64,000 bases of DNA from Escherichia coli (GCF_029227855.1 NZ_CP074356.1), one strand, 5' to 3'. Counted from the first letter of the stretch, positions 45,034 through 55,666 are shown. Numbers and translations are program-made. Notes: generated by a model from the sequence alone, not told the origin.

Positions 45034-45109
45034 TCCTCTGTAGTTCAGTCGGTAGAACGGCGGACTGTTAATCCGTATGTCACTGGTTCGAGTCCAGTCA
45101 GAGGAGCCA
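45034..45109 (+). tRNA. asnW: tRNA-Asn (anticodon GUU); integration target of the island
   Basis: 76 nt identical to asnV/asnU. Its 3' 16 nt form part of the island direct repeat. Confidence 0.98.
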
Positions 45110-45113
45110 AATT
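45094..45113 (+). repeat. attL direct repeat (tRNA 3' end)
   Basis: CCAGTCAGAGGAGCCAAATT. Confidence 0.9.
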
Positions 45114-45270
45114 CAAGTTTTCATGCTTATCTGTACGTCTCTATTTGTTTACGATTCAGTAAGTTAGCGTGAAAATCCTTCCCGGTGCGTATCTGGTTTT
45201 CTCTCTGTATCGGGATAATTTGGTGGTCAGATCTGGGGTCAGTTTGGTTCGATTCTGGAGTGACCCCCAA

Positions 45271-46532
45271 ATGTCTTTAAACGATTCTAAAATCCGCAAG
45301 TTAAAACCCTCTTCCCGTCTGGTAAAACTCTCCGACTCTCACGGTCTGTATCTGCTCGTCAATCCGGGCGGTTCACGCATCTGGTATCTCAAATATCGTT
45401 TCAACGGAAAAGAATCCAGAGTCAGTCTTGGCGCATACCCGCTTGTCTCACTGGCAGAAGCCAGGCAACAGCGCGACGGTATCCGTAAGTTACTGGCGCA
45501 GAATATCAACCCGGCGCAGCAGCGCATGGCGGAGAAAGCGGCCTGCTCCCCTGAAAAGTGCTTTAAGGCAGTGGCGCTGGCCTGGCACAAAACCAACAAA
45601 AAATGGTCGGCTGATTATGCCGCCCGTATTCTCGCCAGTATGGAAAACCATATCTTCCCGGCGATTGGTCATCTGCCAGTTGCCACTCTTAAAACGCAGG
45701 ATTTACTGCTTTGTTGCGGGTTATCGAGGATAAAGGCTTTCTGGAAGTCGCGTCCCGAACCCGGCAGCAACTCAGCAACATCATGCGCTATGCCGTTCAG
45801 CAGGGGCTTACCGAAAGCAATCCGGCGCAGCATCTGGATGGCGTTGTCGCCTCACCCGTAAAGAATCACTACCCCGCGTTACTGCTGGAGCGGTTGCCCG
45901 AACTGCTTGGCCGCATCGGTGACTATCAGCAGGGCCGGGAGTTAACACGGCTGGCGGTGGTGCTGACGTTGCACCTGTTTATCCGTTCCAGCGAACTGCG
46001 TTTCGCCCGCTGGAGCGAGATCGATTTCAGGCACAAAATCTGGACCATCCCCGCCACCCGCGAGGCAATCGACAAAGTACGGTTTTCGGGGCGTGGCGCA
46101 AAAATACGTACCCCGCATATCGTGCCGCTCTCCCGCCAGGCGATTGCCATTCTGAAACAGATACAGGAGCTTTCCGGCCATCTGGATCTGGTGTTTCCCG
46201 GTGATCATAACCCGTACAAGCCAATGAGTGAAAACACCACCAACCGGGCGCTACGCCTGATGGGGTATGATACGAAAACTGAAATCTGCGGGCATGGACT
46301 CAGGGCGATGGCCTGTAGCGCCCTGGTGGAGTCGGAGCTGTGGTCACGCGATACGGTGGAGCGGCAAATGAGCCACCAGGAGCGTAACAGCGTGCGGGCA
46401 GCCTATGTGCATAAAGCGGAGCATCTGGAGGCCAGAAAGGCCATGATGCAGTGGTGGTCGGATTATCTGGATGTGTGCCGCGAGGGGTATGTTGCGCCGT
46501 ACATTTATGCCCGGCAGCATAAGGCAGCCTGA
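45271..46532 (+). pseudogene. int: P4-type tyrosine integrase, disrupted by a 1-nt frameshift near 45706-45710
   Basis: The N-terminal part (MSLNDSKIRKLKPS...LKTQDLL) is in frame 1. The continuation (LLRVIEDKGFLEVASR...HGLRAM...RAAYVH) is in frame 3. Joining needs one extra base. The catalytic HxxR and Y are present downstream. Confidence 0.85.
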
Positions 46533-46568
46533 ATCAGAAATAACGGAAATCATTAAAAATGTAAAAGC

Positions 46569-46594
46569 AGATCCTGATTGACCGGGATCTGCTT
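46569..46594 (+). terminator. Hairpin after the integrase gene
   Basis: agcagatcc-tgattgacc-gggatctgct. The T tract is weak. Confidence 0.4.
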
Positions 46595-53500: not shown

Positions 53501-54753
53501 ACAGCCAGCACCGCCTGGTGTTCTACACGCGGATACAGCATGGAGAGCCACTGGTCGAGAGCCGCTACCTCTACGACCCGCTGGGACGGCGAATGGCGAA
53601 AAGGGTATGGCGGCGGGAGCGTGACCTGACGGGGTGGATGTCGCTGTCGCGTAAACCGGAGGAGACATGGTACGGGTGGGACGGCGACAGGCTGACGACG
53701 GTGCAGACTGACACCACGCGTATCCAGACGGTGTACCAGCCGGGAAGCTTCACGCCGCTCATCAGAATCGAAACAGACGTGACCGAACTGGAGAAAGCGC
53801 AGCGGCGAAGCCTGGCGGAGAAGTTACAGCAGGAAGGGAGTAAAGATGGTCACGGCGTGGTGTTCCCGCCTGAACTGGTGCGGCTGCTGGACAGGCTGGA
53901 GGGGGAAATCCGGGCAGACCGTGTGAGTGACGAAAGCCGGGCGTGGCTTGCGCAGTGCGGGCTGACGGTGGAGCGGCTGGCGGCACAGATCGAGCCAGTT
54001 TATTTGCCTGAGCGAAAAATACATCTTTATCACTGCGACCACCGGGGACTGCCGCTGGCGCTTATCAGTACTGAAGGTGCAACGGAATGGCGTGGGGAGT
54101 ATGACGAGTGGGGGAATCAGCTTAATGAGGAGAACCCGCATCATCTGTTCCAGCCATACCGCCTGCCGGGGTAGCAGTACGATGATGAATCGGGGCTGTG
54201 CTATAATCGTTATCGTTACTACGAGCCGTTACAAGGGAGGTATATTACACAGGACCCGATTGGGTTAAATGGGGGGTGGAATTTATATAAATATCCGCTG
54301 AATCCAATAAATTATGCAGATCCTCTTGGCTTAGCCGTAGATATAAACCACTTCCCAGTCAACGAAGACATACGAAATTATGCAGAGAAAGTTTGGAATA
54401 ATCCTAATATCATTACAATTGGAACACATGGTGATCCTCAATCAGTATATGATGAAAATTATAATAAGATAGATGTCAAGACATTAGCTAATGAGGTTCG
54501 AAATCATCCTAAATTTAAACCTGGAATGTCAGTAAGACTGTTATCCTGTAATACAGGAAAAGGAAATAACTCTTTTGCACAGCAATTGGCAGATGAACTA
54601 GGTGTGAGAGTCTATGCTCCTGACCAATATGACTGGTACTATTCAAATGGTAAGGTAGAGCCTTGGGGAGGATTCTATGATGCAAACAATCAATTGCAAA
54701 TGGACACGAATCAGCCTGGACATGAGTTTACATTCAAGCGAAGGAAACCATAG
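50572..54753 (+). pseudogene. rhs: PAAR-Rhs polymorphic toxin interrupted by a single in-frame amber codon (TAG 54172-54174)
   Basis: The N terminus is a PAAR-like domain ([11 protein letters not shown]...[10 protein letters not shown]), followed by many YD repeats. After ...PYRLPG* the same frame continues [31 protein letters not shown]...YADPLGL (DPxGL at 54319-54333) and a 139-aa AT-rich tip ending at 54753. Confidence 0.9.
54334..54750 (+). other. Rhs C-terminal variable (toxin) domain, family not recognised
   Basis: 139 codons follow DPLGL and composition switches abruptly to AT-rich. The string ...[10 protein letters not shown]... is followed 40 residues later by ...[11 protein letters not shown]... 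(His codon 54427, Cys codon 54547). Confidence 0.6.
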
Positions 54754-54755
54754 GT

Positions 54756-55358
54756 ATGAGGTATTTTCTCTTTATATTTATAACAATCCCCCTTATCTCT
54801 GGAGGTCATATGAGTAATGATAGCGAAAAGATAATATCAACATATTCGCTCAATTTTTTATCACCAGATGATGTGAGGAAAGAAGAACTTAAGGCATCAC
54901 AAGGTGATAGTGATGCTGCATTTAAATTGTACAAATATTACCTTTTTTGCGAGCCAAAATCATACAGAAAACAGCACGAATGGTTAATAATATCGGCAAA
55001 TAATGGAAATGCTATAGCTCAATATAACTTATCAAGAGAACTTGAGTCAGAAGGAAAAGTAGATGAATCAATACAATGGCTGAAAAAATCAGCGGAACAT
55101 GGTAATAATTATGCACAATATCAGATATCAAAATATTTATTAAAAATAGGTGATATTAGAGGATCGGAATATTATCTAAACTTATCTGCGGATAACGGAT
55201 GTGTATTTGCAATAAAAGATATTATCAAAAATATGATGGATAGTGGAAGGTACGATGACGCCCTCATTTGGGTTGAAAAATTGAAAAAATTGTATCCTGA
55301 CACAAATACCGAACTTTACATACAAAAAATAACGCAGAAAAAAAAGCAATCCAAATAA
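54756..55358 (+). CDS. Sel1-like-repeat protein, candidate cognate immunity protein
   Basis: It starts 2 nt after the Rhs stop. SLR motifs are present (SQGDSDAAFKLYKYY, ANNGNAIAQYNLSREL, AEHGNNYAQYQISKYL). The first ATG gives a hydrophobic N terminus. The alternative ATG at 54810 follows a strong GGAGG (54801-05). Confidence 0.7.
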   Translation: MRYFLFIFITIPLISGGHMSNDSEKIISTYSLNFLSPDDVRKEELKASQGDSDAAFKLYKYYLFCEPKSYRKQHEWLIISANNGNAIAQYNLSRELESEGKVDESIQWLKKSAEHGNNYAQYQISKYLLKIGDIRGSEYYLNLSADNGCVFAIKDIIKNMMDSGRYDDALIWVEKLKKLYPDTNTELYIQKITQKKKQSK

Positions 55359-55646
55359 TAATTATATATAATTACTCGCACAGAGTTACAGTATTGCAAG
55401 AAATATATCTAGCATATAAAGTCGCCGCCAGTAAAGATAAAGTACTGTGTAATCCTTCCTCCCATATAGGGGTAAAAACTTAGCATCCAGTGCCCTCGAC
55501 TTAATTTTTAGTATTTTCTCTGTGAAGTGACACTTCGTAGGATTCAGTTCATGTTTACCAGAAAAAAGGTGGTCATTCTGGTGGTCTTGACAATCTCGAT
55601 TTTTTGTTTTAGCTTTCCAATCAGCCAATTAATGGCTACGGCGATC

Positions 55647-55666
55647 CCAGTCAGAGGAGCCAAATT
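55647..55666 (+). repeat. attR direct repeat (duplicated tRNA-Asn 3' end)
   Basis: CCAGTCAGAGGAGCCAAATT, identical to 45094-45113. Confidence 0.9.

Follow-up and report, generated by a model that had tools for sequence, protein, structure and literature searches.

A decayed small integrative island with an Rhs cassette in the tRNA-Asn gene asnW of Escherichia coli

We analyzed a 64,000-nucleotide stretch of Escherichia coli DNA (GCF_029227855.1, NZ_CP074356.1; hereafter the window), in which a 10.5-kb island carrying an Rhs gene is inserted at the 3′ end of the tRNA-Asn gene asnW (Table 1). The genes around it read ldtA-asnV-nac-cbl-asnU-yeeO-asnW, the island, and then yeeN-amn-shiA, which is the K-12 order. 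ARAGORN placed three tRNA-Asn genes in the window, at 40801-40876 (−), 43210-43285 (−) and 45034-45109 (+), the last of these being asnW. The 20-mer CCAGTCAGAGGAGCCAAATT occurs there in four exact copies (45094-45113 (+), 55647-55666 (+), 40797-40816 (−) and 43206-43225 (−)), with 0 matches in 100 shuffles. Three of the four form the 3′ ends of the tRNA-Asn genes, and the 20-mer is therefore common to all asn tRNA genes (asn tDNAs); only the copy at 55647 has no tRNA body. An original prediction, made from the sequence of the window, had proposed a 10.6-kb island delimited by a 20-bp direct repeat made up of the final 16 nt of tRNA-Asn plus 4 flanking nt. Both copies of the repeat proved exact, with asnW ending at 45109 and followed by AATT, and 10,533 bp lie between them.

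Comparison with genomes lacking the island placed the break in synteny exactly at this repeat. In strain Ec-U10 (record L002), asnW runs straight into the sequence found after the 55647 repeat, and asnW is likewise empty in K-12 and ATCC 8739. To survey this junction, we used an 800-bp right-junction probe whose base 401 corresponds to window position 55647. The whole probe was present in 67 of 5,426 complete E. coli genomes (~1% at asnW), and the island is thus far from being a fixture of all lineages. In K-12 MG1655 and other sampled genomes (the majority of 5,420), the match begins at base 401, exactly at 55647, and overlaps a tRNA-Asn gene; in the original prediction, asnW lies directly next to yeeN in K-12. 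A longer, 13-kb query was held over at least 80% of its length by 75 of the 5,426 genomes. A near-identical genome, that of E. coli JNEC-KY178, differs from the window at five positions over the 21 kb from 40000 to 61000 (48429, 54172, 55127, 55925 and 55926).

A P4-type tyrosine integrase gene begins at 45271, 162 bp downstream of the intact tRNA gene. Its type and position are as had been predicted, but it is a pseudogene: a 1-nt deletion near 45705 splits it into open reading frames (ORFs) at 45169-45861 and 45711-46532. The gene is annotated as frameshifted in JNEC-KY178, and the lesion is seen by alignment to the intact 420-amino-acid (aa) allele of strain PCN033, which shares 71% aa identity with the integrase of the pks island and 70% with that of the high-pathogenicity island (HPI). 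Behind it lies a 1.3-kb non-coding gap that holds the expected repeat-rich DNA, namely two 131-nt imperfect repeats at 46734-47092. The first of these contains a 41-nt imperfect palindrome (71% complementary), TATCAAT-type motifs recur over the stretch, and we found no Rfam match to it. It is mostly kept in E. coli relatives of the island, with MRY15-131 and OkiPb01704 each lacking a part, and is largely absent from the Salmonella element described below.

The integrase gene is one part of a conserved backbone of ~5 kb that further comprises a second recombinase with an EFASI RNA, a Ner-like helix-turn-helix (HTH) gene, orf153 and a C4-type antisense RNA. The second recombinase carries two internal deletions (~186 and 87 bp) relative to the intact 294-aa gene of ACN001, which is also intact, at 294 aa, in ATCC 8739 and Salmonella India. 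The remaining components form a minus-strand unit of a1b1/isrK-like hairpins, C4 RNA, orf153 and the HTH_35 gene, the two genes both lying downstream of the antisense RNA. C4 antisense RNAs are of the type used in P1/P7 immunity. A pair of Ner-like regulators had been proposed here; one Ner/SfsB-like HTH_35 gene exists, cut from 84 to 62 aa by a TGG to TGA change (relative to PCN033 and MRY15-131), but its partner, orf153, is an unrelated ORF with no match in Pfam, PHROG or NCBIfam. An Ash-family gene lies just upstream of orf153 in MRY15-131, and the annotation of the thrW island in JNEC-KY178 shows ash, orf and HTH genes arranged alike. Adjoining that module, the thrW island (L019, 18942-23405) also holds a reverse transcriptase with a nitrilase-family gene and an AbiE pair.

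The cargo is an Rhs cassette whose core scores 2476.9 bits against NCBIfam RHS_core (cut-off 2000) and whose GC content is 57-65% in the core, 32-44% in the C-terminal tip and 32-37% in the downstream gene encoding a Sel1/tetratricopeptide repeat (TPR) protein. The predicted toxin/immunity cassette is present, but an amber codon ends its Rhs ORF before the toxin domain is reached. This TAG (54172-54174, from a C to T change at 54172) falls ~50 codons before the ...YADPLGL motif. JNEC-KY178 has CAG at this position and an ORF that continues uninterrupted to 54753 (1,393 aa), so that the continuity of core and toxin is broken in the window. The amber may be of very recent origin or an artefact of sequencing. 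The PxxxxDPxGL boundary is present and is followed by a variable tip and downstream gene: homology to the variants at asnT and asnV ends at 54333, right after DPLGL, and returns only in the last ~85 bp. These variants carry different tips and immunity genes, with a 130-aa protein in ACN001 and an NTF2-fold immunity protein in ATCC 8739. The tip swap after DPLGL is the C-terminal displacement previously described (PMC2935791).

The tip of the window's Rhs protein is a rare one, with only 9 detectable homologues. Sequence searches against PDB and Pfam gave nothing significant and only the fold search was informative, yielding a confident clan-CD protease-like model; the tip is accordingly predicted to adopt a clan-CD (His/Cys) cysteine protease fold, at 8-18% sequence identity to the structural matches. 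The Sel1/TPR gene, 57 bp downstream of the toxin domain, is intact, and its product is presumed, by position only, to be the cognate immunity protein. No vgrG or hcp is found in the island. The original prediction took this cargo to be unusual in having no adjacent vgrG/hcp, a view that we do not share, as such Rhs genes are not unusual in E. coli (PMC2935791). JNEC-KY178 has a complete type VI secretion system (T6SS) at aspV with VgrG, two Hcp genes and an Rhs gene of its own, and PCN033 has been reported to have an intact T6SS (PMC4578781).

Table 1. Features of the asnW island, in window coordinates
Feature	Position	Strand	Evidence and remarks
asnW, tRNA-Asn(GTT), intact	45034..45109	+	ARAGORN; Rfam tRNA 72.6 bits; between yeeO and island; 3′ end regenerated by island-borne repeat
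attL core, 20-bp direct repeat	45094..45113	+	Exact repeat search, empty-site comparison
Left arm, upstream of integrase gene	45114..45270	+	Begins CAAGTTTTCATGC; same end at asnT, asnV and asnW copies
P4-type tyrosine integrase, pseudogene	45271..46532	+	Pfam Arm-DNA-bind_3, Phage_int_M, Phage_integrase
Terminator-like hairpin after integrase gene	46565..46594	+	
AT-rich non-coding stretch	46734..47092	.	Two 131-nt imperfect direct repeats, 46734-46864 and 46962-47092, 73% identical
Second tyrosine recombinase, pseudogene	47870..48487	-	Phage_int_SAM_2 + Integrase_1; annotated "frameshifted"
EFASI RNA motif, directly upstream of second recombinase	48543..48670	-	Rfam RF02957, 100.8 bits (gathering 51.2)
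Ner/SfsB-like winged-HTH gene (HTH_35)	49404..49592	-	Pfam 1.5e-23; NCBIfam SfsB 6e-26, below cut-off
orf153	49589..50050	-	Conserved backbone gene, kept in E. coli and Salmonella relatives
C4-type antisense RNA	50104..50192	-	Rfam RF01695, 62.2 bits (gathering 45)
isrK-like / c4-a1b1 target-like hairpins upstream of C4 RNA	50214..50289	-	Rfam 45.5 (gathering 50) and 43.8 (gathering 46.7), just below threshold
Rhs core gene	50572..54174	+	DUF6531, YD repeats, RHS core; Pfam RHS_repeat, RHS
Rhs C-terminal toxin domain (predicted), 139 aa after ...YADPLGL	54334..54753	+	In frame with core, separated by amber
Sel1/TPR-repeat protein	54810..55358	+	Annotated "tetratricopeptide repeat protein"; PDB Sel1/TPR proteins at 1e-12
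Right arm, conserved, ~85 bp	55564..55646	+	Common to asnT, asnV and Salmonella copies despite different cargo
attR core, orphan 20-bp repeat, then native asnW downstream flank	55647..55666	+	

Next, we characterized relatives of the island by their insertion site, ends and cargo. The backbone (probe 45114-50571) was at least 80% covered in 269 genomes. Sought at the other asn tDNAs, members of the same element family were found at asnT in ACN001 (L003) and at asnV in ATCC 8739 (L016), with the same left and right ends and the same repeat. ACN001 and OkiPb01704 carry a 90-92% identical element between mtfA-asnT and yeeJ; its left end is CAAGTTTTCATGC... and its right ~85 bp end in ...GGCTACGGCGATC, after which come the core and the native asnT flank. 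ATCC 8739 holds a 16.8-kb relative at asnV, with attL at 31020 and attR at 14228 of its record, again followed by the native asnV flank, and a second family copy at asnT. At asnW itself, PCN033 has a 98.8% identical island and MRY15-131 a larger relative. Junction probes detected the asnT right junction in 113 genomes and the ATCC 8739-type asnV right junction in 43. The copies at asnT, asnV and asnW each have the downstream flank of their own site directly after the core, a pattern that would not arise by inversion between tRNA copies. The two cores of ACN001 differ from each other (attL ...GCCAGATT, attR ...GCCAAATT), which places the crossover inside the 16 tRNA nt.

Outside E. coli, a 5.5-kb element in Salmonella India (L017, 8544-14056, in a record labelled plasmid) consists of the backbone with the same core at both ends, all genes intact and no Rhs gene. 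The backbone is therefore the conserved part of these elements and the Rhs cassette is cargo. When the backbone was searched in distant mode, the sole substantial match in the plasmid collection was the cargo-free Salmonella record labelled plasmid, and the phage collection returned fragmentary matches only, none of them meaningful.

Some of these records contain further features of note. In Salmonella India, right arm, core and left arm adjoin in an attP-like junction at ~17440 (−), and a further right arm lies at ~7870; these indicate tandem or nested asn-tDNA elements. The asnV island of ATCC 8739 codes at 14696-20798, in the interval from the NTF2 immunity gene to attR, for two large proteins of 1,327 and 708 aa, neither of which matches Pfam. 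In strain 22AR0118 (L018, 1-20000), a family remnant at asnT is preceded by a tandemly inserted element with genes for VirB-type type IV secretion, MobC, several TIR-domain proteins and nucleotide modification; the right arm of this element is 91% identical to that of the asnW island.

We also compared the integrase genes of the family. The 1-nt deletion of the window is found in MLI106K3 as well; the sampled asnT and asnV copies instead have CAG changed to TAG at codon 177, MRY15-131 has the same change at codon 370 (in a CCAGG context), and the genes of PCN033 and Salmonella India are intact. The amber at codon 177 occurs in L003, L005, L008, L009, L016 and L018, which include both asnT and asnV copies from different strains, and the two integrase copies of 22AR0118 are identical over 1,263 nt. 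Together, the shared amber and the identical pair suggest that gene conversion took place or that an element was duplicated when it was already defective. The amber-177 alleles differ from one another mostly by synonymous changes (dN/dS, the nonsynonymous to synonymous rate ratio, ~0.1). Programmed read-through of the codon, a possibility prompted by this low ratio, need not be invoked and was rejected, since most of these polymorphisms also occur in other, non-amber clades, a pattern that we read as recombination among island copies rather than recoding.

We conclude that window 45114-55646 is very probably a small integrative island in asnW, a decayed copy from an asn-tDNA family with Rhs cargo. 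The insertion and its exact limits, the empty sites, the use of several asn sites, the domain content and the lesions are all directly observed. The island would have been inserted at the 3′ end of asnW by its own integrase, a tyrosine recombinase of the P4 type. In this site-specific reaction, an attP core with the same sequence as the tRNA 3′ end would have recombined with the tRNA gene, regenerating asnW at attL and leaving an orphan core at attR. The family can use any of the identical asn tDNAs. Its cargo slot lies between the C4 module and the right arm and holds, in E. coli, a complete Rhs gene whose C-terminal toxin and immunity gene can be swapped. The Rhs protein may be delivered in trans by the aspV T6SS, with the toxin predicted to act as a protease and the Sel1/TPR protein presumed to confer immunity. 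Because of the lesions in the integrase, the second recombinase and the HTH gene, and the Rhs amber ahead of the toxin, the window copy is best regarded as a fossil that would neither move by itself nor deliver its toxin, with its immunity gene intact.

Several points weigh against this interpretation. We recognized no gene for an excisionase (recombination directionality factor, RDF) in the island, and an excised or circular attP junction was found neither in IMG/VR viral contigs nor in JGI metagenome contigs or complete E. coli genomes; movement is therefore deduced from comparative positions only. The nearest attP-like case in complete E. coli genomes is the junction at asnT in 22AR0118 between the tandem integrative and conjugative element (ICE) and the family remnant. 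The sampled asnT and asnV copies with their shared amber 177, and the identical pair in 22AR0118, may owe some of their spread to homologous recombination, gene conversion or a helper integrase. For the cargo, the Rhs N-terminus has a weak match to PAAR_motif (E 0.031, 14.9 bits against a cut-off of 27), and the toxin and immunity functions are predictions.

Other histories would produce some of the same observations. If the 10.5 kb were ancestral E. coli DNA, lost from most lineages by deletion between the repeats, a clean empty site would be left as well. However, the repeat forms the 3′ end of a tRNA gene beside a P4-type integrase, three asn tDNAs carry the same element and arms, each with its own flank, and a backbone-only version occurs in Salmonella. 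The composition of the island is moreover sharply unlike that of its flanks, and its presence at asnW is limited to ~1% of genomes. Ancestral descent is already contradicted by these findings, and we give it next to no credence. It is also very unlikely that the island is still active, excising and transferring from this strain. Both att cores are perfect, both arms are conserved and an intact integrase allele persists in the PCN033 sub-lineage, but here a frameshift disrupts the integrase, two internal deletions disrupt the second recombinase, and no attP junction turned up in any collection searched. Nor is a related asn-type integrase nearby, since asnT is empty in JNEC-KY178.

The backbone might also be what remains of a phage satellite, P4-like or other, that acquired its Rhs cassette later and whose past movement between cells relied on a helper phage. 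The P4-type integrase, the C4-type antisense RNA with a1b1-like targets as in P1/P7 immunity, and the ash-orf-HTH arrangement, with its Ash-family gene in MRY15-131 and its counterpart in the thrW island, would fit a satellite. No family member examined has the alpha primase, sid, delta, psu or alpA, orf153 and the second recombinase lack a PHROG match, the phage collection gave no meaningful match, the attP pattern was absent from IMG/VR, and the intact Salmonella element measures only 5.5 kb; we consider this origin unlikely. We regard it as rather improbable that homologous recombination or gene conversion among islands linked to asn genes, and not the integrase, was the main source of the copies at different asn sites. 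The amber at codon 177 common to asnT and asnV copies, the identical 22AR0118 genes and the polymorphisms that amber alleles share with other clades all speak for such exchange. Yet each site has a clean attL/attR pair with the native flank after the core, which inversion or exchange between tRNA copies would not give, and intact integrases exist in the family.

The island family also bears on the distribution of Rhs genes. Jackson et al. 2009 (PMC2935791) described clade I Rhs "position 7" between yeeO and cobT and "position 8" between yodB and yeeJ, both in ATCC 8739 and the latter also in Sh. boydii CDC; the positions are listed there without any mention of tRNA genes, and the asnW position is not in the table. 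ATCC 8739, in which these positions were defined, has its asnV family member in the yeeO-cobT interval and its asnT member in the yodB-yeeJ interval, which shows that positions 7 and 8 are members of this family. The Rhs core of the window is 88-92% identical to the position 7/8 copies versus at most 85.5% to other chromosomal Rhs genes, and the displacement of its tip right after DPxGL fits the model of the same authors. One integrase-borne element thereby links two catalogued but mechanistically unexplained E. coli Rhs positions and a third at asnW. With these positions tied to one element, complete Rhs cassettes can be the cargo of a small site-specific element, and not only of large T6SS islands.

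Taken alone, the island is routine accessory-genome biology, a further occupant of the asn-tDNA hotspot that hosts pks and HPI. It nevertheless brings to light a rare, uncharacterized Rhs tip with a clan-CD protease-like model and a candidate Sel1-type immunity protein, and it makes visible the stepwise decay of such an island after fixation. A bolder proposal, which we put forward tentatively and think somewhat unlikely, is that the ~5-kb backbone with its 85-bp right arm represents an undescribed class of minimal asn-tDNA integrative elements that in E. coli shuttle whole Rhs effector/immunity cassettes. If so, an integrase would account for how clade I Rhs genes reached positions 7, 8 and asnW in what has been called "transposition", and these minimal elements might have a possibly phage-satellite-like, RNA-controlled lifestyle. 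Literature searches pairing asnW or asnT with Rhs, or tRNA-Asn with Rhs and "genomic island," returned no description of this island, and the PCN033 genome paper does not mention it.

Elsewhere in the window, tmaR and cobU flank a complete pdu (propanediol utilization) operon, accompanied by pocR and a cobalamin riboswitch (19347-36582); at the same locus ATCC 8739 has a PduV fragment only. The counterpart of tsuA (yeeE; ~12753-13811) in JNEC-KY178 is annotated with an internal stop.

Finally, we compared the island with known systems. The asn tDNAs are a classic hotspot for pks, HPI, EARL islands and ICEs (PMC8209727, PMC6035254). EARL (ROD21-like) islands are excisable elements of Enterobacteriaceae at Asn-tDNA, with a P4-like integrase next to the tRNA gene and a conserved set of type IV pilin genes, RDF, relaxase/conjugal-transfer genes and often H-NS homologues; they measure 19-41 kb with 24-37-bp repeats, compared with 10.5 kb and 20 bp here (PMC6035254). 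Membership in the EARL/ROD21 group was rejected, as no EARL conserved gene was annotated or detected in the island. We likewise rejected membership among P4-like satellites: of a P4 core made up of the integrase with alpha primase-helicase, sid, delta, psu, alpA and epsilon, the island has only the integrase, plus the C4-type RNA, and the Ash-family gene is found in a relative only. Among T6SS Rhs effectors with polymorphic C-terminal toxins and clan-CD protease domains, such as the cysteine protease domains (CPD) of MARTX and TcdA and the DUF4347 effector Tce1, the island tip is set apart by having no Pfam family and by being uncoupled from its core by the amber codon.

The closest parallels are pks and HPI, which, like the island, target the 3′ end of an asn tDNA, carry the integrase right after the tRNA gene and are bounded by short repeats of the tRNA 3′ end. 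The direct repeat of pks is 17 bp, and in B2 strains pks occupies the same site, asnW (PMC8209727). The left ends of pks and HPI hold TTTTCATGC, which is also in the left arm of the island, and pks and the Yersinia HPI, like the island family, use more than one asn tDNA. The second recombinase, EFASI, C4-like RNA and Ner-like HTH gene of the island were not seen beside the pks and HPI integrases examined, and the asnW copy of the island is defective, in contrast to pks and HPI. The island comprises 10.5 kb with an Rhs toxin/immunity cassette, whereas pks (54 kb) and HPI (~30 kb) each carry a biosynthetic cluster.

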